A stretch of DNA of 15,279 bases from a virus (lineage: Duplodnaviria > Heunggongvirae > Uroviricota > Caudoviricetes): IMG/VR virus record IMGVR_UViG_2531839149_000015; one strand, 5' to 3'. The notes beneath the pieces were generated by a model, which had not been told where the DNA came from, made no database searches, and saw only the letters and a program-made list of their open reading frames with translations. The translations under genes were made by a program, and so were the position numbers. This document shows, piece by piece, positions 1 to 15,279 of this stretch (positions within the stretch are counted from its first letter, which is position 1; every line of letters starts with the position of its first letter).

Positions 1-90
1 TTGCCTCCCCCCCGTTGATGGGTAAAATAGCCGCAATTTTTCGTTTTCAACAAGCGCGGCGCGATGCCGCTTACTCAAGAAGAAAGAATT

Positions 91-165
91 ATGACGTTGT
101 CTCCTTATTTGCAAGAGGTGGCGAAGCGCCGCACTTTTGCCATTATTTCTCACCCCAATAATTAA
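91..165 (+). pseudogene. prfC: 5' fragment of prfC (peptide chain release factor 3) truncated at the prophage/host junction
   Basis: ATG at 91 translates [22 protein letters not shown], which I recall as the N-terminus of E. coli RF3, then diverges (NN, stop at 163-165) instead of continuing DAGKTT. Homology appears to end near 156/157. Confidence 0.55.
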
Positions 166-319
166 GCCCAAATTAAAGCTCTTTTACTCTTTCAAAATCC
201 TTTCAGTTAATTGAGCTTGAGCTATATAACTCATTTAAATACATTTGGTTATGTGGCTTCTTTAATTGAAAATTCTTTCATGTAACTTTAAATCGATCAG
301 TTTGCTTTCATCAAAAATC

Positions 320-376
320 TGTACATATGCTTGTACATAATGTACAAAACAGCAGAGGTGTTTTGCGATTTGTACA
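320..376. promoter_or_regulatory. Cluster of four TGTACA hexamers immediately upstream of int; candidate regulator-binding sites in the int promoter
   Basis: TGTACA at 320-325, 332-337, 341-346 and 371-376; TTGTACATAATGTACAA is near-palindromic. int RBS (AGGTGA) and ATG 386 follow directly. Confidence 0.3.
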
Positions 377-385
377 AGGTGAGTA

Positions 386-1609: not shown

Positions 1610-1865
1610 CAGCTTGCGTAGCCCTGACAGTCTGTTTTGAGCGAACAGTGGACATTTTCAATGGCATTCTTGAGTAGGTTACGCTTAGACCAGAAGTAAG
1701 AGGTGATAGAATTATCAACAATACATAAAACATAGGGGATCCTTATTGATTTATTGATCTTGACCAACTTATGTGATGCAGTATGTCTTTAACTTGTATT
1801 ACTATTATCTTTATCTTTATCTTGTTGTTTCTAATAAACTTATCTTATTTCAGAAAGGAGTTTTT

Positions 1866-3566
1866 ATGCATTTAGTCACGAAATCTTATTTCGATGCCTT
1901 TTGCAAAGCATTCGCTGCGCCCTATGAGGAGACCAAAAATTTTGAGGCGTTTGTGAACTATTGTGCTTTTTCAAAATACTCAGGCGACAAAGTTGAGGTC
2001 AGTGATCTTGTGTATGAAGGCCCGGACCCTGGTATTGATGGAGCATTTTTATTTTTAGACGACAGAGCCATTTTTTCAACTGAAGAACTTCAGGAGATTT
2101 TCCAAAACTCACGTCGCGAGTTTCAAGTTTCATTAGTATTCACGCAAGCTAAGTCATCGGAGAAGTGGAGCAAACAGGAAATAGACTCTTACATTGCGTC
2201 AATAAGAGATTATCTTTCACCAGCGCCACAACAACCCCACAGTGAATATCTAGCGGACTTTAAAAAAATGTTCAACTTGATATTTGCTAATATCGGCAGA
2301 GTCAAAAATGGCCTTCCAGACTTATACGCATATTTTTTTAGTGCTGCACAAAATACAGAGGCCAGAGAAATAAAAGCTGCATTTGCATCGGGTGAAAAAA
2401 GCTTAAAGTCACTCGGGTTTTCACATGAAACATCCTTCATTATGGCTCACAAAGACATGATTCATGAGCTTTGGCTTGCTGCGGAAGGTCCAATAGAAGC
2501 TAAACTTCCTACAATAGGCTATGCTCCATTCCCAGCGGCCCCTAATATTAATAATGCCTATGTAGCTACAGTCAAAGCTCGTAGTTTTATTGATTCTATA
2601 CTTAAAGACAAAAATGGAAACCCTCGAAAAAAATTATTCGAAGAAAATGTTAGAGATTTTCTGGGAATTGATGGTGACGTAAATTCAGAAATTGCAGGAA
2701 CACTAGATACTGATGGAAAAAAAGCAAGATTTGGTTTAATGAATAATGGAGTGACAATAGTTGCATCAAGCGTGAGGCCTGCAGGGCAAGAAATTTTTAT
2801 ACGAGATTTTCAAATTGTTAATGGATGTCAAACGTCTAATGTTCTTATATCAAAAGACATTCAAGTAGATGAATCAGTTAGTTTAATGATTAAATTAATT
2901 GAAACCGATGAGCCAGCGATCCTTGATGACATTGTACGAGCTACGAATAGACAATCTAAAGTTGAAGATGCACAGTTCATTTCAACGCTAAAAAAATTAA
3001 GGGAATTAGAACATTATTTTAATGCTAAAGGTGCTATTGAAGGAAATAAAATTTATTTTGAGAGAAGAAAGGGGCAGTATAGTTCAGAAAGTATAGCTCC
3101 AGTACGCATATTTGATATCAGAGAAGTTGCGCGAGCATATGCTGCTATTGTTATGATGAGACCAGATTATTCCAGTCGTTATCCAAATAGGTTAACTGGT
3201 GACTTACTTAATGAGGTTTTCTCTTCCGATGCCCTCGAGGATGATTATTATATATCTTGCTATTGCTTGTATAGGCTAAAGGCTCTTATCTCAAATAAGA
3301 GGTTTGATGGGAAGTATTCAAAATTACGCTGGCATATTCTAACTGCTGCGTCAAAATACTGTGGTAATAATTATAAGGCTTGGGGGTTCAAAAATAAAAA
3401 TGAAGCTCTTCATAACTTATTCTCAATGAATGATGGGGAGTGGTTTGAAAAACTTGAGAGTTTAGTAAAAATAGCTATACCAGATCCGGATATTTCTCGA
3501 GACTTACTAAAGTCGCAGCCTTTAACATCAACGATTCTCAAAAGTGTTGATAGCGTACCTAAATAA
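1866..3566 (+). CDS. AIPR-like abortive-infection protein (ParB/DndB-like fold with NGxQT-type motif); cargo gene between int and xis
   Basis: Strong RBS AAAGGAG (1854-1860) then ATG 1866; the ORF-track start at 1773 is an AT-rich leader artifact. 566 aa, markedly AT-rich versus flanks. Contains GIDG near the N-terminus and FQIVNGCQTSNVL in the middle, which I associate with the AIPR family. Followed by hairpin 3573-3591. Confidence 0.6.
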   Translation: MHLVTKSYFDAFCKAFAAPYEETKNFEAFVNYCAFSKYSGDKVEVSDLVYEGPDPGIDGAFLFLDDRAIFSTEELQEIFQNSRREFQVSLVFTQAKSSEKWSKQEIDSYIASIRDYLSPAPQQPHSEYLADFKKMFNLIFANIGRVKNGLPDLYAYFFSAAQNTEAREIKAAFASGEKSLKSLGFSHETSFIMAHKDMIHELWLAAEGPIEAKLPTIGYAPFPAAPNINNAYVATVKARSFIDSILKDKNGNPRKKLFEENVRDFLGIDGDVNSEIAGTLDTDGKKARFGLMNNGVTIVASSVRPAGQEIFIRDFQIVNGCQTSNVLISKDIQVDESVSLMIKLIETDEPAILDDIVRATNRQSKVEDAQFISTLKKLRELEHYFNAKGAIEGNKIYFERRKGQYSSESIAPVRIFDIREVARAYAAIVMMRPDYSSRYPNRLTGDLLNEVFSSDALEDDYYISCYCLYRLKALISNKRFDGKYSKLRWHILTAASKYCGNNYKAWGFKNKNEALHNLFSMNDGEWFEKLESLVKIAIPDPDISRDLLKSQPLTSTILKSVDSVPK

Positions 3567-3572
3567 AGAGAA

Positions 3573-3591
3573 GGGAAGCTTATTGCTTCCC
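3573..3591. terminator. Perfect 7-bp stem/5-nt loop hairpin just after the AIPR-like stop; U-run is on the minus-strand side
   Basis: GGGAAGC-TTATT-GCTTCCC. On the plus strand it is followed by AATAAATTA (weak); on the minus strand by TTCTCTTTATTT, so it may mainly stop leftward transcription. Confidence 0.35.
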
Positions 3592-3730
3592 AATAAATTA
3601 ACACACTTATAGAACCCTTGACTTAAACTTTTTACTGGTTCTCTCAGATATCGATAATTTTATAGGTTGTATCATAGCGTGATCGTCTTCAAGAGAAACA
3701 ACTTAACATTAAATTAGCAACGTTTGCTCT

Positions 3731-3770
3731 TGGCACAGACTTGACTGTCAGATTAGTTTGGTCTGTGCCA
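3731..3770. repeat. 10-bp perfect inverted repeat with 20-nt spacer, between the AIPR-like gene and the AlpA-like gene
   Basis: TGGCACAGAC (3731-3740) and GTCTGTGCCA (3761-3770). No adjacent U-tract, so a protein-binding or recombination site is as likely as a terminator. Confidence 0.4.
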
Positions 3771-3804
3771 TAGATATGTCAGCTCCCATCTGAGATAATA
3801 CACG

Positions 3805-3999
3805 TTACTCAATAACTCCAGCAAATCTGTATATCTTGCGTGATGCCCATTTATTTGGGCAGGATTTAATATCAGGATCTGGAAAGTCAGGCCTGTATTT
3901 CTGGCCAGTTCTCCTGTTTACGCTGTTCCAGCGAAGAACAGTCGATACTGAAACGCCACAGAAGTCGGCGACTTGTTTAGTTGTCATTAAGTTGTTCAT
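3805..3999 (-). CDS. AlpA/excisionase-family small HTH DNA-binding protein (candidate recombination directionality factor / int regulator)
   Basis: 64 aa; MTTKQVADFCGVSVSTVLRW is a helix-turn-helix typical of AlpA/Xis-type proteins. Start overlaps the stop of the upstream gene (TAATG), i.e. translationally coupled. Confidence 0.7.
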   Translation of the reverse strand: MNNLMTTKQVADFCGVSVSTVLRWNSVNRRTGQKYRPDFPDPDIKSCPNKWASRKIYRFAGVIE

Positions 4000-4619
4000 T
4001 ACTTCACCTCCTGCGGCGGCTCCGGTAGCGGCATCCAGTGGGTTACTTTCGATGCCGGTTCTTCCCTATCGTCAGTAACTGCCCACCATTTGTTTCTCGA
4101 CCAATCGTAATCCCCTTCGAAGGTATCGCACTCAGTCCAGCCGTAAGGCTTCCCCCAACACCAAACATACTGTTTATCGTTCGGCATTCGCTCACTACAG
4201 CTTATCCAACCATCCGGAGTTACTGGAGAGTTGCCCGACAGCTTGTTCAACTTGTAAGTCTGGCTTACAGGTTCGGCACCATGAAGCATGGCGGCGCGGC
4301 AGGCGTTCCAGCCTTCATCAAAACCGACTATGCCATTATTTAAAGACGGACGAGCATCTGGCACCACCGGCACTGGCTTGGCTATATATAGCGGCTGAAC
4401 ATACCAGCCCTTTGATAACCAACTGTCAGCAATGTTTTTACTCCTCGTTATTGCCGGAATACCTAAGCCATTTTCTGAATGCAGCCATGCCACCGGCTCC
4501 TCTTCTAGCGATGCCAGAGCAATTTCATAAGCACGGCGCTCAATATCGTCTCGAACCTCTAGGCTGCTGATTCGTTCTTTGATTTCTTTAATCAGTTCTT
4601 TATCGGTAAATGTGGTCAT
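3999..4619 (-). CDS. DUF551-type phage protein (yfdT-like position)
   Basis: 206 aa; C-terminal WISCSERMP...VTHWMPLPEPP matches the DUF551 signature as I recall it. Start overlaps the upstream stop. Confidence 0.65.
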   Translation of the reverse strand: MTTFTDKELIKEIKERISSLEVRDDIERRAYEIALASLEEEPVAWLHSENGLGIPAITRSKNIADSWLSKGWYVQPLYIAKPVPVVPDARPSLNNGIVGFDEGWNACRAAMLHGAEPVSQTYKLNKLSGNSPVTPDGWISCSERMPNDKQYVWCWGKPYGWTECDTFEGDYDWSRNKWWAVTDDREEPASKVTHWMPLPEPPQEVK

Positions 4620-4981
4620 TATGCTCCAGCCTCCGGTGCTTTTGGCATTACTGCCCAGTGAGTGATATTGACGTTTTCAAGGTCCCCGACCTGAAATGTC
4701 CACTGCCATTCTCCGGTTTCTTTTTGCCCCCATGTATCCCAGAGAGAACGCCAGCCAATCAGCCAGCCTTCTCCATTAGCATCAAATAACAAAACACTTT
4801 CATTTGCTGGTGGCAGTTCAGTTGACACTGGTATTACTTTGTTTTCCTGTGCTGCACATTTAGCTTCAAGCGCATCGAATTTACGCACTAGGTATTCAGC
4901 ATCCGTTTCATTCACTTTCAGATCTCGCGGTACACATCTCCCACGAAGAAACCCTTCCATTTCGAAAACATTCATGCGCAT
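4619..4981 (-). CDS. DUF551-like phage protein (yfdS-like; 120 aa)
   Basis: C-terminal ...NITHWAVMPKAPE resembles the DUF551 motif; overlaps both neighbours in a coupled operon. Confidence 0.6.
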   Translation of the reverse strand: MRMNVFEMEGFLRGRCVPRDLKVNETDAEYLVRKFDALEAKCAAQENKVIPVSTELPPANESVLLFDANGEGWLIGWRSLWDTWGQKETGEWQWTFQVGDLENVNITHWAVMPKAPEAGA

Positions 4982-5508
4982 TTGCGTAACTCCGATAATT
5001 CGTTAAAGCGTTCCATAAACATCCCGTAGGCATGGCCTGGAGCCAGTGGAATCACGTTGAACATCTCTGTTGCCGGGATACCTTCCAGCACAGGCCAGAA
5101 AGAGCCATCATCAAGCCCGAGATCGCGGCGTTCGGTTGCCAGCATAATGAGATCGGCATATTTCACTGGCGTGCTCATAACAGGAGGTAACCCGTATTTC
5201 TCACGGATTACGGCGTCTATTTTTTCTTCCATCCGTTTATAGTCAGGAAGAAGTCGTTTCAGTGGTGCGGGGATGTCCTGGCAATATGCTTCTGTTGCAT
5301 CATGCATTAAAGCTTCAAAAGCAAATTCCTGCGGCACCAGCTGGCTGCAAAGCACCGCATGTTGGGCGACGCTGTAGAAGTGAGAAAGATGACCGGCAAA
5401 GCGGCAGATATTTGAAAGGGAAACCGCGATATCGTTAATAACGATGTCGTCTTTATTTATCTTGTCATAATAAAAATGCTTCCCGGAAAAAGTTTTAATA
5501 AATGACAT
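4972..5508 (-). CDS. yfdR: HD-domain phosphohydrolase (YfdR-like putative 5'-deoxynucleotidase)
   Basis: Start moved to the ATG at 5508 (RBS GGAG 7 nt upstream; MSFIKTF...), giving 178 aa. H...HD metal-binding motif (AQHAV...ALMHDATEAY). Length and position match CPS-53 YfdR as I recall it. Confidence 0.65.
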   Translation of the reverse strand: MSFIKTFSGKHFYYDKINKDDIVINDIAVSLSNICRFAGHLSHFYSVAQHAVLCSQLVPQEFAFEALMHDATEAYCQDIPAPLKRLLPDYKRMEEKIDAVIREKYGLPPVMSTPVKYADLIMLATERRDLGLDDGSFWPVLEGIPATEMFNVIPLAPGHAYGMFMERFNELSELRKCA

Positions 5509-5602
5509 TTTGTTCTCCACTTTATATGCGCTGCACCGCGCTGAATTTTGGTTAAAGAAAACCCTCGCCATCAGGCGATTATTGAGTTAATTACGTTTCC
5601 AT

Positions 5603-5624
5603 AAATGCCCCCGCAGGGGCATTT
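5603..5624. other. Intergenic 9-bp stem hairpin between the yfdQ-like and yfdR-like genes
   Basis: AAATGCCCC-CGCA-GGGGCATTT. No clear U-tract on either strand; possible attenuator or RNA-processing/stability element. Confidence 0.3.
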
Positions 5625-5636
5625 GCAGTAATGAAA

Positions 5637-6461
5637 TCAGGCGGTGAAAGTACCAATAAAGGTTTCTACTTTGCTGTCTTTGAATTTTTCAACAAGCAGA
5701 TCACGAAATTCGTTAGCCATTTCTTCCTGCACTGCTTCCAGCTGAATAATGCGCAGAACCAGTACAGGGCGATCACCAGTGATAATGCTGAGGCGTAATT
5801 TAAACGGACGTTCTTTCAGGCCTTCAAACGGAACGCATTTAAACTCAAATGCTACTGGCATAATGTCTTTGGTTTTCGCTTCGACAGACTCCATCAGAGA
5901 GCGTTTGCCGCTGAAGTCATTGTCTTCAAAATCAGCGGTCTGGTTTGCTTCAATCGTGATTTTACGGACCGCCGCAGCCGCTTTTGTTGCCTGAATGGCG
6001 TCACCATTAGCATCAAAGCCCACAAGGTAGTCGGCCCAGTCTTCAATCCATTCTGCCAGTGACTTCTGGGAGTTACGCTCGCCGTTAACAGACAACAGAG
6101 CAGAGAACGGTGCTGTCTTTTTCAGTTTGAGAGTGGCGGTGTTATCTGCGTGACCTGGTTCATCAATAGTACCCAGGTTAAGCACACTGACGGCACGCAT
6201 ATTATCGGCATCGATAAAGCAGCGGGTGCCTTCATCTGCAAGAACTTTAGAATAACGGGTAAAGTCATCGATGCTGGCAGTGGAAAGCGCACCACGGAAA
6301 CGGAAGCGATTTAAATTAAATTTTTCCAGATCATGAATGCGGAAATTCTCAGGCAATGCCACAGCATCGGCACCAATCTTACTGATAATTTCATTAACAC
6401 CCTGAGCAGAAATAAGGGCATGGATTTGATTAATTGCGGTTGCGTCTAAGTTCTGAGACAT
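5637..6461 (-). CDS. yfdQ: DUF2303-family phage protein (YfdQ-like)
   Basis: 274 aa, same length and operon position as CPS-53 YfdQ as I recall it; uninterrupted ORF with normal composition. Confidence 0.6.
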
Positions 6462-6526
6462 AATAAGTCCTCACTATATAAAGATATTCAGTGATGAGAT
6501 AAATAATCGGTTAATTAAGAACGATA

Positions 6527-6889
6527 TTAATGACCTGCTGCGCGGAGTTTTCCGTCAGGTTCACCGGCAAGAGTCAGTAATTGTCCCTGGTCTTCCTGCA
6601 GAATAGTCAGGCGACCACCGCGATTGACATACATCGGCGTTTCGGTGGTGTCTTCTTCGGAAATTTTCCCGCGGTTAGTCGGGCGAACATATGAGAGTTT
6701 GTGTTTGATTTTCACACGGTTCTCATCAAATGGTTCGATTTCCAGGTTGAGTGAGACCTTACCTTTGGTTTTCGTGTTCATCACACCGGAAGCGACTTCA
6801 CTGAGAACTGCGCCGATTTTGGTTTCAAATACGCCGCCGTCCAGCTCCCCAATAAATGCCTGCACATCAGTACTGCGTTCGCTAGCCAT
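6527..6889 (-). CDS. Conserved phage early protein of unknown function (yfdP-like position, 120 aa)
   Basis: Start set at ATG 6889 (MASERSTDVQ...) with RBS AGGAG 7 nt upstream. The 226-aa ORF-track extension to 7207 is C/R/W-rich, non-protein-like text. Confidence 0.55.
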   Translation of the reverse strand: MASERSTDVQAFIGELDGGVFETKIGAVLSEVASGVMNTKTKGKVSLNLEIEPFDENRVKIKHKLSYVRPTNRGKISEEDTTETPMYVNRGGRLTILQEDQGQLLTLAGEPDGKLRAAGH

Positions 6890-6937
6890 TTTTCTGCTCC
6901 TAATCATATCGACCCTGCAAGGTCGGTTGGTTTCTCC

Positions 6938-7026
6938 ACAAAACAGAGAAGAACACCTGCGGTGGCAGCCGCCCGGATGGATTGGGTTATGAGCCCGTCG
7001 TCCGGTGATGTTCTTCTCTGTTTTGT
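6938..7026. repeat. 18-bp perfect inverted repeat (stem) enclosing a 53-nt GC-rich loop; core of a structured non-coding region
   Basis: ACAAAACAGAGAAGAACA (6938-6955) pairs perfectly with TGTTCTTCTCTGTTTTGT (7009-7026). No flanking U-tract. Further local hairpins lie 7080-7150. Confidence 0.55.
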
Positions 7027-7358
7027 AAAAAGAGCGGTACCAGCCGGAAGCAAGTGTACAAACTTGTACCGCGAGGACTACACACAGCATAAAGTTGTGG
7101 TGCCGGGTGCCTCCCGGTGCCTGGCGAAGGTTGCACACCAGGCGGGTGGGTATCCACAGAAGGTCGACTGTCAGCCTCAACCTTAACCCGCGTGCGCTGA
7201 GCCGCATTCACCACAACGCTAAGGATTCTCTCTGGTTGAAAATACTTAGCTGTTATGTGCCTGCTTTTAGCCACATCAGGCGAGGTGGACCTAGTTATTC
7301 CCCAACAACAAGGATTTGGTTAATCTGGATATCCCCAACAACTAGCTGAGTATTCAAC

Positions 7359-7880
7359 GTGATAGCTGAACTGTCTGCGGCTATGGCCGCTATAAAGGAG
7401 ACTGCCGGTCTTGCTAAGGTTATTAATGACGCGAAAACGGATGCAGAAGTTAAAGCTGCAACCATTGAACTCCAGAACAAACTAATCACGCTTCAGGCAG
7501 AATGCTTCTCTCTTGGCGATGCGATCCGCCTTCGTGATGAAGAGGTGATGCATCTCAAAGCAAAAATTGCAGAGTTTGAAGATTTTTGTGCCAAGGTAGA
7601 AGGATATGTCCTTGATCAGCTTGACTCTGGTGCTTTTGTTTACTCTAAAAATGAAATTGTGAGTGGAAAAGAAATAACTGTGCATCTGTGCCCACTTTGT
7701 TATTCCAAAAATATAAAATCGATACTTCATCCGCTTCCAGTAGGTAAAACTTCTCATTTTCTTACAAGCCGTTGCCTTCACTGTGAAAATAAATTTCTTA
7801 TGGAAAAAAATCCGATGTACGAACGACCAAGATCATTACGTGAGTTGGGGCGAGATCTGAATTCGCCTTGGATTCCTTAA
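7359..7880 (+). CDS. Hypothetical coiled-coil / C4 zinc-ribbon protein; moron oriented opposite to the early-left operon
   Basis: 173 aa from GTG 7359 (alternative ATG 7383). N-terminal heptad-like region (IELQNKLITLQAE...LKAKIAEFEDF), C-terminal CPLC...CLHC. AT-rich 3' half; own terminator at 7923-7945. Confidence 0.6.
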   Translation: MIAELSAAMAAIKETAGLAKVINDAKTDAEVKAATIELQNKLITLQAECFSLGDAIRLRDEEVMHLKAKIAEFEDFCAKVEGYVLDQLDSGAFVYSKNEIVSGKEITVHLCPLCYSKNIKSILHPLPVGKTSHFLTSRCLHCENKFLMEKNPMYERPRSLRELGRDLNSPWIP

Positions 7881-7922
7881 ATCTTGCATTGGTTGGATGA
7901 TACCCAGATTGTTAAAGAGCTA

Positions 7923-7945
7923 AGCGTCCTGTAGGGCGCTTTTTT
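7923..7945 (+). terminator. Rho-independent terminator of the moron gene
   Basis: AGCGTCC-TGTA-GGGCGCT (7-bp stem, one G-U pair) followed by TTTTT, about 45 bp after the stop at 7880. Confidence 0.6.
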
Positions 7946-8028
7946 GTTGCTAACGAATCATCCTGGACTTCATATGCCCCAGGCGGCTACTTCGTGGGCG
8001 TCCTGCCTGTTCGTTATCTTTGATATAA

Positions 8029-8057
8029 AATCTAACTTAACTTAGTTATCATGGCAA
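8029..8057 (-). promoter_or_regulatory. Candidate leftward (pL-like) promoter with overlapping operator
   Basis: On the minus strand: TTGCCA (-35; plus 8052-8057), 17-bp spacer, TAGATT (-10; plus 8029-8034). The 14-mer CTAAC-TTAA-CTTAG (8032-8045) overlaps the spacer/-10 and matches the operator architecture seen between cI and cro. Confidence 0.35.
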
Positions 8058-8110
8058 GAGAAAACACCAAACTTTTCTTAGTTCGGTGCCTTAGTTAGAG
8101 AAGAGAGGCC

Positions 8111-8737
8111 TTAGAGTTCGTATTGAACTCCTTTGACTACACCAATGATAAGGCAATTACCATTGATAGGGATGTTGGGATACCGAGGATTTAATGGTAC
8201 TAAAAACTTTTGAGGGCCATCGATGACTAATTTTTTTACTGTAGCTTCGTTTGTTCCATCAAGTCGAGCGATGACTATTTTTCCATGACGAGGTTCTGCA
8301 TCTGGATCTACAATCACTGTTGCGCCTTCTGGTATTGTTGGGAGGCCATTAGGGTTAGTCATGGAGTCACCTTTAACCTCTAATGCAAATGAGTTATCAC
8401 CAACCTTTAATGATGTATCTACCCACTTGTCCACTTCACTAAACACTTCTGCTGCCCTGCACTCAGTAAACTGCCCAGCCTGAACCCACGATATTACAGG
8501 AACTCTGCGCATGTTTGTGACGAGTTTGCCTTCAAACTCAGCACCATAAAGAATGTAATCTATTGACGTATTGAAGAACTTCGCTAATTTCGAAAGTGCC
8601 TCCCCACCAGGGGTATTGATGTCTTTCTCCCAGTACCCCACAGCAACGTCGCTTACTCCACAAAATTTACCCAATTCTTTCTGGGACGTTCTGGTAACTC
8701 TTCTCAGAGCTTTTATACGCTGACCAACCGTTTCCAT
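8111..8737 (-). CDS. cI: CI-like repressor (XRE-type HTH plus S24 LexA-like autopeptidase domain)
   Basis: 208 aa; N-terminal HTH (QKELGKFCGVSDVAVGYWE), C-terminal S24 signature with GDSM serine and KKL lysine; divergent from a cro-like gene. Confidence 0.85.
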   Translation of the reverse strand: METVGQRIKALRRVTRTSQKELGKFCGVSDVAVGYWEKDINTPGGEALSKLAKFFNTSIDYILYGAEFEGKLVTNMRRVPVISWVQAGQFTECRAAEVFSEVDKWVDTSLKVGDNSFALEVKGDSMTNPNGLPTIPEGATVIVDPDAEPRHGKIVIARLDGTNEATVKKLVIDGPQKFLVPLNPRYPNIPINGNCLIIGVVKGVQYEL

Positions 8738-8759
8738 AGGAGCACCATTTCTTTAATTG

Positions 8760-8822
8760 CTAAGTAATCTTAGTTTTTATTGACCAAAGATAGATTTGTA
8801 ATTAGCATCTAATAAAACTTAG
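8760..8822. promoter_or_regulatory. Divergent immunity promoter/operator region (two palindromic 14-mers flanking a sigma70-like promoter)
   Basis: O1 CTAAG-TAAT-CTTAG (8760-8773); -35 TTGACC (8780-8785); 17-bp spacer; -10 TAGCAT (8803-8808); O2 CTAAT-AAAA-CTTAG (8809-8822); RBS GGAGG (8826-8830); cro ATG 8835. Confidence 0.5.
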
Positions 8823-8834
8823 TTTGGAGGGCGT

Positions 8835-9035
8835 ATGACAACTGACGATATCGAAAGCTACTTCGGCAGTATTGAGAAAGTTGCTGCTTTTTTCGGCATA
8901 ACAACTGAAGCCGTTTATCAGTGGCGAAACCGTCCGGGCCAGTTAATTCCAAAAGGACGTGCAGCAGAAGCTGCATATAGAACTTGCGGACGGTTGCCAT
9001 TTAAACCTGAGCTTTATGAAAAATCTAATGGATAA
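8835..9035 (+). CDS. Cro-like small HTH regulator (YdaS/Cro-type)
   Basis: 66 aa; HTH (EKVAAFFGITTEAVYQWRNR); first gene of the rightward operon opposite cI. Confidence 0.7.
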   Translation: MTTDDIESYFGSIEKVAAFFGITTEAVYQWRNRPGQLIPKGRAAEAAYRTCGRLPFKPELYEKSNG

Positions 9036-9630
9036 ATCGATTAACAGAAACCACAGAACGATGAGGCTAACCGTGGGTAAGCATCACTGGAAAGTAGAAA
9101 AACAGCCTGAGTGGTACGTGAAAGCTGTCAGAAAAACTATCGCAGCGTTGCCGGGGGGTTACGCTGAAGCAGCTGACTGGCTGGATGTAACAGAGAACGC
9201 ATTATTTAACCGCCTTCGTGCCGATGGCGATCAGATTTTCCCGCTGGGATGGGCAATGATTTTGCAACGTGCTGGTGGAACTCACTTCATTGCTGACGCT
9301 GTGGCGCAGTCTGCAAATGGCGTCTTTGTGTCTCTTCCTGACGTCGAGGATGTGGACAACGCCGATATTAACCAGCGTCTGCTGGAAGTCATTGAACAGA
9401 TCGGCAGTTATTCAAAACAGATTCGTTCAGCAATCGAAGACGGTGTAGTGGAACCGCATGAGAAGACAGCAATTAACGACGAGCTGTATCTCTCAATTTC
9501 GAAGCTGCAGGAGCATGCAGCACTTGTCTACAAAATTTTTTGCATTTCAGAAAGTAATGACGCCCGCGAGTGTGCAGCTCCGGGCGTCGTGGCGTCGATT
9601 GCTTCTGGTTGTGGAGAAACTAACGCATGA
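9016..9630 (+). CDS. CII-like / YdaT-type phage regulatory protein
   Basis: Start uncertain (ATG 9016 or 9028, overlapping the cro end; ORF track begins 8959). Position after cro and general features suggest a CII/CP76-type regulator; assignment is by synteny and memory. Confidence 0.5.
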
Positions 9631-9965
9631 ACAGTTTAACAACACACTACCGTCGCTCGCAACTGATTGCGCTTCCTGTACCGGGTGGAAAAGCGAAGGT
9701 GGAGTATTGCTATGCAGTAAATGTACCAGGTGACAGGGAAATTGTAACCCACAGCTTTGCAGAGTGGGCTGTGGGTGATTTCAACCGGCAGAAGGAGACA
9801 GTCCTTTGCGACAAGTTAACCGCTGGTTCAAAGATCACTACGGAGTGCCCGTCAGAGTCATTCGTTGGGAACCGGAAACACAACGGGTTATCTACCTCCG
9901 CGAAGGCTATGAGCATGAGTGCTTCAGCCCGCTCGAACAGTTTCGTCGTAAATTCAGGGAAATAG
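9627..9965 (+). CDS. Hypothetical ORF coupled to the upstream gene; 3' portion probably not real
   Basis: ATG overlaps the upstream stop (ATGA). The C-terminal half is Ser-rich and low-complexity, and it overlaps a better-looking ORF in another frame (9806-9985). Confidence 0.3.
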
Positions 9966-9985
9966 AGGTCGGTCATGAGCACTAA
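9806..9985 (+). CDS. Small conserved phage protein (59 aa, TTG start); resembles DUF4222-type proteins found upstream of replication genes
   Basis: RBS AAGGAGA (9792-9798) 7 nt before TTG 9806; translation [59 protein letters not shown] has natural-protein composition; stop overlaps the start of the replication gene (coupling). Not in the ORF track because of the TTG start and length. Confidence 0.45.
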
Positions 9986-10916
9986 ATTAACCGGCTATGT
10001 ATGGGATGGTTGCGCTGCATCAGGCATGAAGTTATCCAGCGTGGCAATTATGGCCCGCCTGGCTGATTTCAGTAATGACGAAGGTGTGTGCTGGCCATCA
10101 ATTGAAACCATTGCCCGTCAGATTGGCGCGGGGATGAGTACCGTCAGAACGGCTATCGCACGGCTGGAAGCAGAAGGCTGGTTAACGCGTAAGGCGCGTC
10201 GCCAGGGTAACCGCAATGCGTCGAATGTTTATCAGCTTAACGTTGCGAAGCTTCAGGCAGCGGCATTTTCTCAACTGTCAGATTCTGACCCGTCAAAATC
10301 TGACGCATCAAAATCTGACCCGTCAAAATTTGATGCGTCGAAATCTGGCAAAAAAGCGGGTTTTCACCCGTCAGAATCTGGCGGGGATCCGTCAGTAAAA
10401 TCAAAACATGATCCGTCAGATAAAAAACCTTCTCGTCCGGACGCTTCGCAACCGGACACGCAGACGGATGAACAGGATTTTTTAACTCGCCATCCTGATG
10501 CGGTTGTATTCAGCCCTAAAAAGCGCCAGTGGGGGACGCAGGATGATTTGACCTGCGCACAGTGGCTCTGGAAAAAAATCATCGCCCTGTACGAGCAGGC
10601 TGCCGAATGTGACAGCGAGGTGGTTCGTCCCAAAGAACCGAACTGGACAGCCTGGGCAAACGAAATTCGCCTGATGTGTGTGCAGGATGGTCGTACTCAC
10701 AAACAAATCTGCGAGATGTACAGCCGCGTCAGCCGCGATCCGTTCTGGTGCCGTAACGTGCTCAGCCCGTCGAAGCTGCGGGAAAAATGGGATGAGCTTT
10801 CCCTGCGCTTATCGCCGTCCGTCAGCACGTACACAGAAAAACGCGAAGACCCGTACTTCAAAGCCAGTTACGACAATGTGGACTACAGCCAGATCCCGGC
10901 AGGATTCAGGGGGTGA
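9975..10916 (+). CDS. Phage replication initiation protein (N-terminal winged-helix DNA-binding domain, pentapeptide-repeat linker, C-terminal domain)
   Basis: 313 aa; N-terminal HTH (SIETIARQIGAGMSTVRTAIARLEAEGWL); central PSKSD/ASKSD repeats encoded by 15-bp DNA iterons; occupies the gene-O position after the cII-like gene. Confidence 0.75.
   Translation: MSTKLTGYVWDGCAASGMKLSSVAIMARLADFSNDEGVCWPSIETIARQIGAGMSTVRTAIARLEAEGWLTRKARRQGNRNASNVYQLNVAKLQAAAFSQLSDSDPSKSDASKSDPSKFDASKSGKKAGFHPSESGGDPSVKSKHDPSDKKPSRPDASQPDTQTDEQDFLTRHPDAVVFSPKKRQWGTQDDLTCAQWLWKKIIALYEQAAECDSEVVRPKEPNWTAWANEIRLMCVQDGRTHKQICEMYSRVSRDPFWCRNVLSPSKLREKWDELSLRLSPSVSTYTEKREDPYFKASYDNVDYSQIPAGFRG
10275..10349. repeat. Five contiguous 15-bp iterons inside the replication gene (candidate origin), with degenerate copies to about 10427
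   Basis: CTGTCAGATTCTGAC / CCGTCAAAATCTGAC / GCATCAAAATCTGAC / CCGTCAAAATTTGAT / GCGTCGAAATCTGGC; further CCGTCAGAATCTGGC (10368), CCGTCAGTAAAATC (10389), CCGTCAGATAAAAAA (10413) with A-rich stretches. Confidence 0.6.
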
Positions 10917-10918
10917 GC

Positions 10919-11407
10919 ATGAGTCTTTTGAATGACGTTCAGAAATTCATTGAAGCCCATCCGGGCTGTACTTCCGGAGACATTGCGGATGCTTTTGCAG
11001 GTTACTCACGGCAGCGCGTTCTGCAGTCAGCAAGCAAGTTACGTCAGAGTGGGCGTGTGGCTCACCGTTGTGAAGGAGATACACACAGACATTTCCCGCG
11101 CCTGACTGAGAGAGCGCAGGATCCGGAACCACAACCAGTTCGTGAAACCAGACCTGTGCGCAATTTCTATGTCGGCACTAACGACCCGCGGGTGATTTTG
11201 TGCCTGACCCGCCAGGCGGAAGAACTGGAGTCCAGGGGCTTATACCGTCGTGCTGCAACGGTGTGGATGGCGGCATTCCGTGAAAGCCACTCCCTGCCAG
11301 AACGAAACAATTTTTTGGCGCGTCGTGAACGGTGTTTACGGAAAAGCAGTAAGCGGGCTGCATCAGGTGAAGAGTGGTATCTCTCAGGGAATTACGTGGG
11401 GGCTTAA
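10919..11407 (+). CDS. Hypothetical protein with C-terminal PerC-like motif
   Basis: ATG 10919 (RBS AGGGGG; overlaps upstream stop). C-terminal LTRQAEELESRGLYRRAATVWM closely parallels RKAEELESKGLYRRAAARWM of the PerC-family ORF at 13738. No Walker motifs, so not a P/DnaC-type helicase loader. Confidence 0.6.
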   Translation: MSLLNDVQKFIEAHPGCTSGDIADAFAGYSRQRVLQSASKLRQSGRVAHRCEGDTHRHFPRLTERAQDPEPQPVRETRPVRNFYVGTNDPRVILCLTRQAEELESRGLYRRAATVWMAAFRESHSLPERNNFLARRERCLRKSSKRAASGEEWYLSGNYVGA

Positions 11408-12060
11408 TGAGTAATAAATATTGCCAGGCGCTGGTGGAACTGCGGAACAAACCAGCCCATGAACTGAAGGAAGTGGGCGATCAGTGGCGCACGCCGGACA
11501 ACATTTTCTGGGGAATTAACACCCTGTTTGGCCCGTTTGTTCTGGATCTGTTCACTGACGGTGATAACGCCAAATGTGCTGCGTATTACACGGCGGAAGA
11601 CAACGCGCTGGCGCATGACTGGTCAGAACGCCTTGCGGAGCTTAAAGGTGCTGCCTTTGGTAATCCCCCATACAGCCGCGCCAGTCAGCATGAGGGGCAA
11701 TACATCACCGGCATGCGTTACATCATGAAGCATGCCAGTGCCATGCGTGATAAAGGCGGGCGCTATGTTTTCCTGATCAAAGCTGCCACCAGCGAAGTGT
11801 GGTGGCCGGAAGATGTAGAACATATTGCTTTTATTCGCGGGCGTATTGGTTTTGAACTGCCTGCCTGGTTTATCCCGAAGGATGAGAAGCAGGTGCCGAC
11901 AGGCGCTTTCTTCGCTGGTGCTATTGCTGTTTTCGACAAGACCTGGAAGGGACCGGCAATCAGCTACATCGGGCGCGATGAACTTGAGGCATGTGGTGAG
12001 GCCTTTCTGGCGCAGATTCGCCAGCAGGCAGAAAAACTGGTCAGGGAGATGGCGGCATGA
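11407..12060 (+). CDS. Phage-type DNA N6-adenine methyltransferase
   Basis: Start at ATG 11407 overlapping the upstream stop; catalytic NPPY motif (AAFGNPPYSR); size about 217 aa typical of phage Dam-family enzymes. Confidence 0.8.
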   Translation: MSNKYCQALVELRNKPAHELKEVGDQWRTPDNIFWGINTLFGPFVLDLFTDGDNAKCAAYYTAEDNALAHDWSERLAELKGAAFGNPPYSRASQHEGQYITGMRYIMKHASAMRDKGGRYVFLIKAATSEVWWPEDVEHIAFIRGRIGFELPAWFIPKDEKQVPTGAFFAGAIAVFDKTWKGPAISYIGRDELEACGEAFLAQIRQQAEKLVREMAA

Positions 12061-12383
12061 CGACGTTAACTCAATGCCAGCAGCAGGTGCTGGATATGCT
12101 GATTTCTTATCAGAAAGAACGCGGCTTCCCGCCAACCAATCAGGAGGTGGCAACCATGCTGGGATACCGTTCGGTGAATGCAGCGGTGGAGCATCTTCGC
12201 GCACTGGAGAAAAAAGGCGTCATCACGATAAAGCGTGGTGTGGCCCGGGGGATCACGCTTCATACCGCGGTGAAGGACGACGACAGCGAGGCGGTCGGGA
12301 TTATCCGCTCACTGCTTGCCGGTGAGGAAAACGCAAGGCTGCGTGCAGCCCACTGGTTACATGAGAGGGGGCTGAAAGTATGA
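12057..12383 (+). CDS. LexA N-terminal DNA-binding-domain-like protein (no peptidase domain)
   Basis: 108 aa; MTTLTQCQQQVLDMLISYQKERGFPPTNQEVATMLGYRSVNAAVEHLRALEKKGVI parallels the LexA winged-helix domain; ends without an S24 domain. ATGA overlap with the Dam stop. Confidence 0.6.
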   Translation: MTTLTQCQQQVLDMLISYQKERGFPPTNQEVATMLGYRSVNAAVEHLRALEKKGVITIKRGVARGITLHTAVKDDDSEAVGIIRSLLAGEENARLRAAHWLHERGLKV

Positions 12384-12592
12384 AGCTGATTCTGCCTTTT
12401 CCACCCAGCGTGAACACCTACTGGCGACACCCCAACAAAGGGGCATTTGCTGGTAAGAGCCTGATAAGCGCGGCGGGGCGAAAATTCCAAAGTGCGGCGT
12501 GCACAGCAATAGTTGAGCAGTTACGTCGTCTGCCGAAACCAACGTCGGCACCTGCTTCAGTGGAGATCGTGTTGTTTCCTCCGGATATCTGA
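12380..12592 (+). pseudogene. rusA: Truncated rusA (Holliday-junction resolvase) N-terminal fragment
   Basis: LPFPPSVNTYWRH matches the RusA N-terminal motif; the ORF stops after ...VEIVLFPPDI (70 aa), where full-length RusA would continue with its catalytic acidic residues. No continuation in other frames; downstream sequence is unrelated. Confidence 0.65.
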
Positions 12593-12665
12593 CGTGATAA
12601 ATCGCGTTACATGACATCTCATGTTGTGCTGGTGGTTATCACGACGTTCTGAATCTGGCCTTTGC

Positions 12666-12698
12666 CTGATATTTTGCGACAAGTACGCGCGCGTAGCA
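12666..12698. repeat. Copy A of a ~35-bp imperfect direct repeat containing palindrome TACGCGCGCGTA
   Basis: CTGATATTTTGCGACAAGTACGCGCGCGTAGCA; about 75 bp downstream of the rusA fragment. Confidence 0.55.
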
Positions 12699-12721
12699 TC
12701 GACAGCATACACATTGGATAT

Positions 12722-12943
12722 TCATTTTGTGACCAATGCGATAAGTAGCGGGATAAGAATTGATAAAATCAACAGGCCGATGATCCACTTTTGATTTTCA
12801 CTGGCCTTATCTCTATTTTCATCAATCTTATCAATAATTCGACGCTCCAAGCCGTGCATATCACCGCGAATGGCAATCATCTCATTGCGAACATCCGAGA
12901 AGTGGTTGGCTTGATGTTCAATGTGTGGCGTTCTGCCTTTCAT
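12722..12943 (-). CDS. Small tail-anchored membrane protein (73 aa), unknown function
   Basis: Hydrophilic charged N-terminal region and a single C-terminal hydrophobic helix (WIIGLLILSILIPLLIALV); downstream of and co-oriented with the RHH-like gene. Confidence 0.5.
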   Translation of the reverse strand: MKGRTPHIEHQANHFSDVRNEMIAIRGDMHGLERRIIDKIDENRDKASENQKWIIGLLILSILIPLLIALVTK

Positions 12944-13022
12944 TCCTGATCCTCACCTATCGTCACCACCTGCTGGTGTATAAAGGTATTGGCCCAAGCA
13001 GCTTTCCAATGGGCACTCATGT

Positions 13023-13478
13023 TTATACGCTGACCTTACAATCAATCACCGCTTTTAACTTTTCAGCATTGCTTCCCTGACGCTTCCACGCGCTGTAAAT
13101 ATCTTTATCCCACGCTTTACCAGCTTTTGTTTGATAGCCTGCTTCATTGATCCGTTCAGCTATCACACGCCCATTATCAAATCCCTGTCGGATGGTATCG
13201 GCAATGATCTTTATAACTGCCGTTTCGTTATATGGCTTTGGTGGGATGTTCGGCTTTCCGGCAATAAGCGACGCAGCAGCTTTTTCCATGCGCTCCACCA
13301 GCCCAAGCATTCGTGAATCAATAGACTTTTCCGGCTGTCCCAGCTTCATGCGAATCGCATCAACAAGCCAGGAGGTTTTATCCCCTCCAGAAGCGAGAAC
13401 AGACCGATTAAACTCATCCTGCAATTCAGATGGGATGCGGAACGCGACCAGATTAGATTTGCTCATTGCAAAGACCAT
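13023..13478 (-). CDS. Putative DNA-binding regulator (ribbon-helix-helix-like N-terminus)
   Basis: N-terminal SNLVAFRIPSELQDEFNRSVLASGGDKTSWLVDAIRMKL resembles Arc/CopG-type RHH; C-terminal AGYQTKAGKAWDKDIYSAWKR resembles a recombinase-type DNA-binding helix. Start ambiguous (ATG 13478 or 13466); no clear SD. Confidence 0.55.
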   Translation of the reverse strand: MVFAMSKSNLVAFRIPSELQDEFNRSVLASGGDKTSWLVDAIRMKLGQPEKSIDSRMLGLVERMEKAAASLIAGKPNIPPKPYNETAVIKIIADTIRQGFDNGRVIAERINEAGYQTKAGKAWDKDIYSAWKRQGSNAEKLKAVIDCKVSV

Positions 13479-13580
13479 ATCAGTGAGTAATATCCATACA
13501 GTATATCACTGTATAACACTGTTATACGCTCAAATATCAGCCAGAAAATAACGGGCCAATCACAAAGCTATCGCTGTGTT

Positions 13581-13701
13581 GTTGGTTCAGAGCTGGGCTG
13601 TGTTGGTTCAAAATGAGTTGATGTTGGTTCAATATTTTAGAAAAAACATAATAAAAACAACGATCTTTACAAATTGAACCAACTGAACCAACTGAACCAA
13701 C
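13581..13701. repeat. Iteron-like array: three GTTGGTTCA direct repeats phased at 21 bp, then three tandem inverted copies TGAACCAAC
   Basis: GTTGGTTCA at 13581, 13602, 13623; TGAACCAAC at 13675, 13684, 13693; AT-rich spacer between; lies between divergent genes (13478 minus, 13738 plus). Confidence 0.6.
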
Positions 13702-13737
13702 ACCTTTTTGCTTATCTATATAATCTGAGAGGCAGAA

Positions 13738-14019
13738 ATGATAAGGGACAGGAAAGCTGAAGAGCTGGAGTCAAAAGGGCTATACCGGAGAGCTGCCGCA
13801 CGATGGATGGAAGTCATGCTGTTATGCAGCGAGGACGATGATCGGGAATGGATAAAGCGCCGCCGTGAAACGTGTCTGGAGAACGTGAAGCGCCCGCCCG
13901 TGAAGGTTGAGGAATTTGGCGACCTGCATAAAGCTGTTACCGAAACGCAACACCGCATGGGGATAGCGCAACCGAACGGTAACGCCTTCCGGTTAAATGG
14001 CGGCAAGAGGCAAAGGTAG
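13738..14019 (+). CDS. PerC-family transcriptional activator (Pch-like)
   Basis: 93 aa; MIRDRKAEELESKGLYRRAAARWMEV... matches the PerC/Pch signature as I recall it; RBS GAGAGG upstream. Confidence 0.6.
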   Translation: MIRDRKAEELESKGLYRRAAARWMEVMLLCSEDDDREWIKRRRETCLENVKRPPVKVEEFGDLHKAVTETQHRMGIAQPNGNAFRLNGGKRQR

Positions 14020-14055
14020 ACCACCAGAGGGAAATCATCCTCTGGCTGGCGGTTT

Positions 14056-14090
14056 CTGGTATTTCGGGACAAGTACGCGCGCGCGTAGCA
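14056..14090. repeat. Copy B of the ~35-bp imperfect direct repeat
   Basis: CTGGTATTTCGGGACAAGTACGCGCGCGCGTAGCA; three mismatches and a 2-bp CG expansion relative to copy A; about 40 bp after the PerC-family stop. Confidence 0.55.
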
Positions 14091-14316
14091 CCCAATCGGT
14101 GAGGAAATAGCGGCGACCTGAATGGTCAAAATCACAACGCAGCTATCCCCGTAAGCAGCGCTTAACGGAATAGCAGTAACCTGAATCCAGTGGGGAGGGG
14201 GTAGTCAAATCTCTACAGCCCTGACTATCCGGGACTGCCCGCCCCATCGTTTTTTTATACCCGCGAAAAATGAAATTTAATCCGGGCGTGTTTCATCCTT
14301 CCAGAGGGTATGACGT

Positions 14317-14502
14317 ATGACACCACGCGAAATAGCTTTATTGACCACCGCCAAACTGGAGCACGAAGGCCACCAGCTAACCCCGGCAGATCAACGGGAG
14401 ATAGAACGCTCAGTTAATGCCAATATAGCCCGGCGTGACAAATTTCGCGAAATGATGCGATCCCCCGCCTACCAGTGGAAGAAGCCTGCGCCGCGCAGGT
14501 AG
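14317..14502 (+). CDS. Small hypothetical basic protein (61 aa)
   Basis: ATG 14317 preceded by AGAGGG; hydrophilic with a basic C-terminus; no recognisable motif. Could be a partner of the downstream Panacea gene or a spurious ORF. Confidence 0.35.
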   Translation: MTPREIALLTTAKLEHEGHQLTPADQREIERSVNANIARRDKFREMMRSPAYQWKKPAPRR

Positions 14503-14823
14503 ATTACCTTTATTCACCTTTATATATTCGAACAACAAAACCTCTCGCAGGTCTCGCCAATAAAGGGATATAGCAGTAACTATGACCGCCGAATGGCAAA
14601 GCTACGATGCAAGTCGCTGGTTTCCAAACTTGAGGTTTCCAGGACGGTTTCAACCAAATTGCGGATTATCAGCCAAACGCACCGGGTATCTTGCGCGGTG
14701 GATGGTGAGCCATCACGCAGAATCTTTAAATGGCATTTTACGATGGGCAATACCCGTGGTTATATGCGATTATTAACGGTAGTGGACAGTTATAGACGAA
14801 AACATACGGCAGGAGATTGGATA

Positions 14824-15279
14824 ATGGCAGTTACAACCCTTAACAGCGTAGCGGATTACCTGCTTTGCTTTGCTCAAGAGCATGGGGATGTTATGACGCC
14901 GCTGAAACTGCAAAAAATGGTGTTCTATGCTGATGCTTGGTTCATGGCGCTGAATGATGGCGAAGAACTGGTTGCTGACAAGTTTGAAGCATGGGTACAT
15001 GGCCCTGTAGCCAGAGATTTGTATACCAGATTTGCAGATTACAAATGGCGCTCAATAGACGAAGAGATTGCCTGCCCTGAGTTACCTGCGAATGTGTCAA
15101 AGCATCTAAAGGAAATCTATGAGGTATTTGGCGGTTATACAGCTTATGAGCTGGAGCAGATGACGCACCAAGAAAAGCCGTGGCTGGAGGCCCGTGAAGG
15201 GGTTCCATCAGATGCGCCGTGCAAGAATGTTATTGATAAAAGTGTAACGGCTGAGTTTTATCGTTCGATGGCTTCCTAA
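14824..15279 (+). CDS. Panacea-domain (DUF4065) protein, PanA/SocA/GepA-like putative antitoxin
   Basis: Start set at ATG 14824 (RBS AGGAGA 7 nt upstream) rather than the ORF-track start 14593. 151 aa with TPLKLQKMVFYADAWFMALNDGEEL, matching the Panacea signature as I recall it. Stop is at the last base of the window. Confidence 0.7.
   Translation: MAVTTLNSVADYLLCFAQEHGDVMTPLKLQKMVFYADAWFMALNDGEELVADKFEAWVHGPVARDLYTRFADYKWRSIDEEIACPELPANVSKHLKEIYEVFGGYTAYELEQMTHQEKPWLEAREGVPSDAPCKNVIDKSVTAEFYRSMAS

Follow-up and report, generated by a model that had tools for sequence, protein, structure and literature searches.

The origins of PICIs consist of two sets of iterons around an AT-rich region and lie directly 3′ of the initiator gene (PMC6092414). 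The SaPI origin, which lies just after rep, has an AT-rich center with iterons on each side that point in opposite directions; SaPI Rep reads these iterons through a C-terminal winged-helix domain and loads itself as a helicase (PMC9371898). For EcCICFT073, the pri-rep/ori segment was established by experiment as a replication module, and deletion of either rep or ori reduced colony yield (PMC6092414; Fillol-Salom et al., 2018). Initiator-dependent replication has been demonstrated experimentally only for this element, whose iteron and Pri-Rep allele are unlike those described below (PMC6092414). In P4 (annotated GenBank record X51522), the alpha gene is immediately followed by crr, and ori is 4.5 kb away, between divergent operons. 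Each P4 crr unit spans 120 bp, in which a pair of type-1 repeats set 9 bp apart is accompanied by a T-rich stretch and by inverted copies.

Here we describe an array of six short repeats at positions 13581–13701 of a 15,279-bp stretch of DNA, which we refer to as the window. The array is laid out like the P4 crr unit. Arrays of this type share with EcCICFT073 opposing iteron sets, an AT-rich middle, a position 3′ of a fused primase-initiator gene, and accessory genes after the origin. The EcCICFT073 iteron, TGTCTACC, is unlike the GTTGGTTCA found here, and its Pri-Rep is another allele (a 584-amino-acid "DNA primase family protein"). Compared to EcCICFT073, the window lacks both the initiator gene and the proximal origin unit, and the origin of its parent lineage is split by ~6 kb of cargo. 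A literature search for the literal 9-mer returned only unrelated matches; the iterons in PMC6092414 are given in Fig. 2a of that paper rather than in its text.

The array is a known kind of element, stranded here, and not a new regulatory device. Our preferred reading, to which we assign a probability of about 0.78, is that it represents one complete PICI-type satellite origin unit that is read by a satellite Pri-Rep and that formed the distal part of a bipartite origin, orphaned in the window. Direct support comes from the repeats themselves, from the homology and position of such arrays in intact elements, from covariation of the Pri-Rep C terminus, and from the absence of pri-rep from the window. 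On this reading, the repeat array would be a fragment of a phage-satellite origin that was left stranded.

Six iterons surround an A+T-rich spacer

An earlier note on this DNA had described three direct repeats at 21-bp spacing, an AT-rich spacer, and three inverted copies between divergent genes, and we confirmed this arrangement at 13581–13701. On the plus strand, three iterons, (T)GTTGGTTCA, occupy 13581–13589, 13602–13610, and 13623–13631. They are followed by a 43-bp spacer (13632–13674) that is 83.7% A+T, compared to 53.9% for the window. Three abutting minus-strand iterons, inverted relative to the first set and read on the plus strand as TGAACCAAC x3, fill 13675–13701, with starts at 13675, 13684, and 13693. 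From start to start, the iteron spacing is 21, 21, then 52, then 9 and 9 bp. The flanking open reading frames (ORFs) are divergent, with one at 13023–13466 on the minus strand and a PerC-family gene at 13738–14019 on the plus strand.

A search of the whole window identified these six exact copies of GTTGGTTCA/TGAACCAAC and no further exact copy. By chance, ~0.1 exact matches to a 9-mer are expected on both strands (2 × 15279/4^9); six copies in 121 bp are far above this expectation and strongly non-random. The extended form of the iteron is TGTTGGTTCA. Helical phasing, which had been ascribed to all six copies, holds for the three plus-strand iterons, where 21 bp corresponds to about two turns, but not for the abutting trio, in which the 9-bp spacing leaves the copies unphased. 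The 12-bp gaps that separate the plus-strand iterons are not conserved, and the right part of the spacer (AAAACAA...ATCTTTACAAAT) is kept across genera. The spacer is the presumed melting region. In the published descriptions of satellite origins, the sequence required in cis is at least two opposing iterons on each side of an AT-rich region (PMC9371898; PMC6092414), and the window contains three plus three exact 9-mers around its 43-bp spacer.

Scans of the window with Rfam, at gathering thresholds, and for tRNAs gave no match. Direct repeats phased at about two turns beside an AT-rich region, as seen here, also characterize the iteron origins of plasmids such as pSC101, P1, F, and R6K. Plasmid iterons are 17–22 bp long and bound by Rep_3-type winged-helix monomers, and these origins rely on DnaA boxes and on loading of host DnaB/DnaC. 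We rejected a Rep_3 plasmid origin, as the repeats here are 9–10 bp and no Rep_3 gene is adjacent. The sole replication protein encoded in the window, an O-like prophage protein (9975–10916), lies 2.7 kb from the array in a different mosaic segment.

Homologous arrays lie immediately downstream of Pri-Rep genes

A sensitive search with the intergenic region as query found matches in 563 of 5426 complete E. coli genomes, at a median of two places per genome. The first or the second repeat is the exact site of recombination breakpoints in these matches. Where the match is weaker, TOPRIM/DUF927 or DUF927 genes lie directly upstream of the array. Islands with these arrays encode an integrase as well as Icd-like and AlpA-like proteins, and two of them additionally have genes for capsid, portal, and terminase. 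Two of the islands, L004 and L005, are PICI or capsid-forming PICI satellites.

In L004, L005, and an island at thrW of E. coli NCTC9022 (L001), the TOPRIM/DUF927 gene is followed immediately on its 3′ side by such arrays, and their spacer is homologous. L004 and L005 each contain two units. Unit 1, right after the pri-rep stop codon, consists of two abutting plus-strand copies, an AT-rich stretch, and five spaced minus-strand copies. Unit 2, which follows, consists of two spaced plus-strand copies, an AT-rich stretch ending in ATCTTTACAAAT, and three abutting minus-strand copies. The window array corresponds to unit 2, including the flanking TTTTTGCTTATCTATA. L004, L005, L001, and many IMG/VR loci also have the abutting triple preceded by ATCTTTACAAAT, located next to a Pri-Rep gene or downstream of one. 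The window array is not immediately 3′ of a rep or pri-rep gene, whereas most of its homologs elsewhere are.

We assembled two samples of such loci. The first was pattern based: an 18-mer scan of IMG/VR yielded 120 loci, in which arrays were counted if they had at least four copies and both orientations. Of the 83 arrays that resulted, 71 lie no more than 150 bp from the 3′ end of a Pri-Rep gene, seven abut a PerC start, three have neither neighbor, and two are at the edge of the locus. The second sample, retrieved by Pri-Rep protein alone and therefore blind to the DNA motif, gave 73 usable loci. In all 73, the 450 bp downstream of the gene contain three or more copies of a 9-mer. This 9-mer is GTTGGTTCA in 63 loci and a variant in the other ten (GTTGTCTCA, GGTGGTTCA, CGTGGTTCA, GTCGGTTCA, ACGGGTTCA, AACGGGTTA, and GTTGTACCA).

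These Pri-Rep-linked homologs support the proposal, made in the earlier note, that the repeats are iterons for an initiator. Conservation of the repeats in homologous regions, the test that had been set beforehand, proved to be very strong. GTTGGTTCA arrays form a simple DNA signature for origins of the DUF927-type Pri-Rep across the Enterobacterales.

An 18-mer scan of genome contigs returned at least 120 loci; among the matches listed, 92 lacked an array with four or more copies and both orientations and are chance or unrelated matches. The same scan revealed at least 30 arrays, all in Enterobacterales except for one contig. This exception (L218 3395–3506), a 6-kb contig binned with a "Bacillota bacterium" MAG, bears a typical enterobacterial distal origin unit and is probably misbinned.

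The Pri-Rep C terminus covaries with the iteron

The Pri-Rep proteins encoded upstream of these arrays contain a primase zinc ribbon, a Toprim_3 domain, and DUF927. Residues 402–813 match the "Pathogenicity island protein" in PDB 8TCH (E 1e-11) and the SCCmec helicase 5DGK, and the N-terminal ~360 residues match the P4 alpha primase (34% identity over 359 amino acids, E 2e-43). By homology, Pri-Rep is related to the SaPI Rep proteins, and its primase half to P4 alpha. The helicase/origin-binding part of alpha has no detectable similarity to the DUF927 part of Pri-Rep.

The ten Pri-Reps with variant iterons diverge from the others mainly in their last ~70 residues. Within this region, the motif SGRGYQRKSPRIxGRQINVYVL is near-invariant among GTTGGTTCA-type Pri-Reps and differs in the variant-iteron proteins: DGKKFQ or DGQRFQ is paired with the iterons GGTGGTTCA and CGTGGTTCA, SGRGYQGRV-REG with GTTGTCTCA, and SQDRYRRKALKRIG with AACGGGTTA. 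The C-terminal motif reads SGRGYQRKSPRI in the GTTGGTTCA type and DGKKFQRKSPRI in the GGTGGTTCA type. There is one exception, as the L138 Pri-Rep has a somewhat altered motif yet keeps GTTGGTTCA. The correlation between iteron and Pri-Rep C terminus in these sequences is therefore strong but imperfect, and the covariation points to the last ~35 residues as the candidate iteron reader.

The resemblance to SaPIs extends to several features. In both, the initiator appears to be the helicase (the DUF927 region matches 8TCH), iterons flank an AT-rich center, and a C-terminal domain is predicted or known to read the iterons. By analogy, the Pri-Rep tail would form a winged helix and read the iterons through a mechanism of the SaPI Rep type. 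The systems differ in that SaPIs have iterons of 5–6 nt and Gram-positive hosts, whereas the elements described here have iterons of 9–10 nt, a P4-alpha-type primase, and a second, distal unit.

The likeness to P4 ori/crr type I repeats raised in the earlier note holds for the architecture and for the homology between the Pri-Rep and alpha primases; it does not extend to the repeat sequence, as the P4 type-1 repeat is TGTTCACC/GGTGAACA and the repeat in the window is GTTGGTTCA. Strict identity with P4 ori/crr was rejected, since the iteron is a different one, alpha is not encoded in the window, and the helicase parts are unrelated.

From the behavior of SaPI Rep and P4 alpha, we propose how such a unit would fire. 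The C-terminal domain of Pri-Rep would bind the iterons on both sides, and the bound protein would assemble and melt the 43-bp A+T spacer. Pri-Rep would then load itself as the helicase and prime synthesis. For the array in the window, Pri-Rep binding, melting, and any activity in trans are inferences.

The window joins a prophage remnant to the right end of a satellite

The window derives from an E. coli chromosome. Most of it (1–12587) is a lambdoid, CPS-53/e14-like prophage remnant. This part encodes a P4-family integrase with Arm-DNA-bind_3 and Phage_integrase domains (386–1609), a CI-type repressor (8111–8737, minus strand), and the O-like replication protein mentioned above, together with AIPR, DUF551, YfdR, YfdQ, CII-like, YfdN/PerC-domain, Dam, and LexA-like proteins. 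At its end, a RusA gene is truncated at 12592. Similarity of the prophage part to other genomes ends at 12587, and satellite-derived DNA starts at about 12671, which places the integrase and the repeats in different pieces of a mosaic. The junction is within 12380–12671, and ~80 bp separate 12587 from 12671.

The satellite-derived segment (12671–15279) is 99.9% identical to L001 15672–18280, the right-hand part of the NCTC9022 island, which is a satellite island of the type with an integrase, an AlpA-type regulator, pri-rep, and accessory genes. It contains, in order, a 73-amino-acid ORF and the RHH-like gene, both on the minus strand, the origin unit, PerC, a 61-amino-acid ORF (MTPREIALLTTAKLEHEGHQL...; 14317–14502), and a Panacea/SocA-domain gene (from 14593 onward). 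The left half of the satellite, with its integrase, pri-rep, and proximal unit, is missing, and the lambdoid remnant adjoins the segment that remains. No DUF927 or primase ORF was detected in the window, and sid, delta, psu, and alpha genes are likewise absent from it. In the closest genome, CM151387, the entire thrW island is a prophage/satellite composite that lacks a primase-helicase gene.

Judged by sequence similarity, then, the window is a lambdoid prophage remnant followed by the right end of a PICI-like island, and not the single P4-like element that the earlier note had envisaged. That note had also cited the P4-type integrase in support of a P4-like origin. The family assignment was correct, but the gene, together with the regulators, resides in the prophage remnant that ends at 12587 and not in the satellite segment that begins at 12671.

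The integrase bears on a further reading of the repeats. The trio of abutting short repeats recalls the P′ arm sites of a lambdoid attP, and a P4-family integrase is encoded in the window, so the iterons could be arm-type integrase binding sites of an attachment site. We consider this extremely unlikely: there is no tRNA or core sequence nearby, and the arrays adjoin pri-rep or lie inside islands rather than at island ends or beside integrase genes. In P4, moreover, the arm repeats are annotated as a set separate from the ori/crr repeats.

Candidate defense or addiction cargo is present at both ends of the window. At the left, a gene for an AIPR-domain protein (1773–3566) adjoins the prophage integrase; at the right is the SocA/Panacea-domain gene (14593–15279). 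The 61-amino-acid ORF is a recurring backbone gene of these satellites, with 88.5% protein identity in Cedecea. In L002, L074, and L103, a distal origin unit follows immediately downstream of it.

Origin units are kilobases apart in some satellites

In NCTC9022, the gene for Pri-Rep (WP_001244106.1) is followed by a 3+3 unit, and an inverted unit of the window type is ~6 kb (5.7 kb) farther on. Cedecea davisae (L329+L247) has the same order as NCTC9022: pri-rep, unit 1, ~6 kb of other DNA, an RHH-like gene on the opposite strand, unit 2, and later the 61-amino-acid ORF. Only shared backbone pieces can be aligned between these two elements. The window retains the distal unit of this two-block layout. 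These elements suggest one Enterobacterales satellite lineage with a bipartite origin, in which the proximal unit would directly follow pri-rep and a second, inverted unit would be either adjacent to the proximal one or, in the split form, ~6 kb away, by the RHH-like gene and with cargo downstream of it. The origin of some of these satellites would then be divided in two by several kilobases of cargo, which parallels the separation of crr and ori in P4. We found no description of an origin split by ~6 kb of cargo in the papers accessible to us.

Pairs of units 6–8 kb apart were seen in L001 (10839–10950 and 16582–16702), L329+L247, and L103 (4451–4553 and 12857–12977). With its variable content, the interval between the units resembles a cargo slot; in NCTC9022, it includes P22-like ejection-protein genes. 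In Pantoea coffeiphila (L249 4438–6600), a distal origin unit, the RHH-like gene, and the 61-amino-acid ORF together make up a 1251-bp module that is duplicated in tandem.

We aligned 17 distinct distal units from several genera. Kept across these units are the iterons, the 21-bp phasing, the 43-bp spacer length, and the ATCTTTACAAAT block. Pairwise identity is 98–100% in the iterons, 46–52% in the 12-bp gaps, and 32–36% in the outer flanks; as iterons 1–5 were part of the pattern used to select the units, the values for the gaps are the informative ones. The spacer is 43 bp in 17 of 18 units, with a mean pairwise identity of 73%. As gauged from these alignments, the distal unit is a conserved feature and not debris. 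Its retention beside RHH homologs in other genera makes a decaying relic a less likely reading of the array. Because the array is perfectly intact without an initiator, and because linkage to the RHH-like gene recurs across genera, the distal unit may do something beyond, or other than, origin firing.

The RHH-like neighbor probably has its own operator

The minus-strand gene beside the array encodes a 147-amino-acid protein with an RHH-like N terminus (13023–13466, start per RefSeq annotation). Neither the protein alone nor a profile matched sequences in Pfam, NCBIfam, or the PDB, and a single-sequence AlphaFold2 model was poor (pLDDT 39). The putative RHH fold is compatible with the sequence pattern. 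Homologs with 62–74% identity occur in six genera, and homologs in Cedecea, Pantoea, Erwinia, Rosenbergiella, and Chimaeribacter are encoded 68–160 bp from a distal unit. The gene is therefore a conserved backbone neighbor of the distal origin unit.

RHH proteins often bind short tandem or inverted repeats, and the earlier note had named this protein as a candidate binder. On such a reading, the iterons would be its operator and mediate cooperative control of the divergent promoters. This would fit with the position of the gene, which adjoins the distal array in E. coli as well as in Cedecea, Pantoea, Erwinia, Rosenbergiella, and Chimaeribacter. However, another candidate operator is closer to the gene. 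Just upstream are two overlapping palindromes, ATACAGT-N5-ACTGTAT (13496–13514) and GTATAAC-N3-GTTATAC (13511–13527). Among 12 homologs, the N terminus SNLVAFR is accompanied by GTATAAC/GTTATAC in 5/5 cases and SLSVTFR by two copies of GTCTTAC in 7/7, and GTTGGTTCA is identical in both classes. Since the RHH N terminus covaries perfectly with the promoter-proximal repeat of its own class and the iterons stay constant, the operator would be 13496–13527 and not the iterons. Homologs encoded far from arrays keep a 60-bp upstream block with these palindromes, and we regard 13496–13527 as the probable operator/promoter of the RHH-like gene.

The distribution of the genes also argues against an RHH operator in the iterons. 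RHH homologs with 69–74% identity in L013, L036, L050, and L083 are more than 1.5 kb from any array, and most arrays adjoin pri-rep with no RHH gene nearby. We therefore judge it very unlikely that the iterons serve the RHH-like protein.

PerC occupies a variable slot after the origin unit

On the other side of the array, the PerC-family gene (13738–14019, plus strand) encodes 93 amino acids (Pfam PerC, E 1.2e-30). It is preceded by a promoter-like stretch on the same strand (13702–13737) with ACACCTTTTTGCTTATC, a TATAAT box at 13719–13724, and a GAGAGG ribosome-binding site. The –35 position of this box is weak and overlaps the last iteron, and a consensus scan of 12900–14400 found no canonical sigma-70 promoter. 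The lone TATAAT box marks a putative PerC promoter. The block GTTTTTGCTTAT(A/C)TATA is partly kept after distal units in several genera.

Variants of PerC are found in some E. coli PICIs (PMC6092414). In EcCICFT073, the order is pri-rep, ori, hyp, ssb, and PerC, with PerC ~1 kb past the origin. The Cedecea element has other DNA in the PerC slot. PerC is thus an accessory (cargo) gene in a variable slot directly after the origin unit.

An arrangement of short phased repeats in front of a gene for a small DNA-binding protein is reminiscent of centromeres of the parC/ParR type. The iterons could accordingly be a centromere-like partition site or, given that an array abuts the start of PerC in seven IMG/VR loci, sites for PerC autoregulation; the earlier note had put forward the local PerC as a possible binder. 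We find both readings highly improbable. The module contains no partition ATPase gene. Arrays occur without PerC in L004, L005, L103, Cedecea, Pantoea, Erwinia, and Rosenbergiella, and where PerC is present, proteins only 51–54% identical sit behind identical iterons. In other PICIs, PerC is 0.5–1 kb from the origin. Together with the placement of PerC in a variable cargo slot, these findings speak against PerC as the protein that binds the array.

The prophage part of the window encodes a second PerC-domain protein (YfdN-like, 164 amino acids; 10913–11407), so that the two PerC-family proteins are of different origin. Between PerC and the 61-amino-acid ORF are ~300 bp of non-coding DNA (14020–14316) in which a G+C-rich stretch is followed by a T run at the end (~14225–14258). 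Rfam yielded no match in 14020–14316. L004 has a similar terminator-like hairpin ~120 nt past its distal unit.

Orphan units and possible activity in trans

As there is no initiator in cis, the unit in the window cannot fire alone. An orphan unit of this kind would fire only if a co-resident or incoming satellite with matching iteron specificity supplied Pri-Rep in trans. One alternative to a merely stranded origin piece is that the orphan still acts in this way, either by titrating or being fired by a foreign Pri-Rep, with incompatibility or local amplification of the PerC and Panacea cargo as the outcome, or by coupling the PerC promoter to satellite induction through its abutting iterons. 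Several observations are in keeping with this idea. All six iterons are intact without an initiator in cis, and orphan modules consisting of the RHH-like gene, the array, and PerC are found in decayed islands at two sites, thrW and yicC-dinD. The array region is frequent in E. coli (563/5426 complete genomes, at a median of two places each), and the last iteron overlaps the –35 position of the TATAAT box in front of PerC. Against this, the orphans are 97–100% identical to intact elements and are perhaps too young to have decayed, and one (L003) already has a degenerate first iteron, GTTAGTTCA. We consider activity of the orphan in trans unlikely.

A broader version combines a lineage with a split, P4-like two-site origin with orphan distal units that would still be fired or titrated in trans, thereby amplifying the PerC/Panacea cargo or interfering with related satellites. 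This version, too, seems to us rather improbable. If orphan units do fire in trans, the result could be amplification of decayed islands or their interference with satellites that enter the cell.

The preferred reading remains that of one complete satellite origin unit, the distal part of a bipartite origin, left without its initiator. Decayed islands can also carry short repeats of another kind: L002, a further such island, has three GGTATCCA repeats at 5520–5570, by an AlpA-like HTH gene, which constitute a different short-repeat set.
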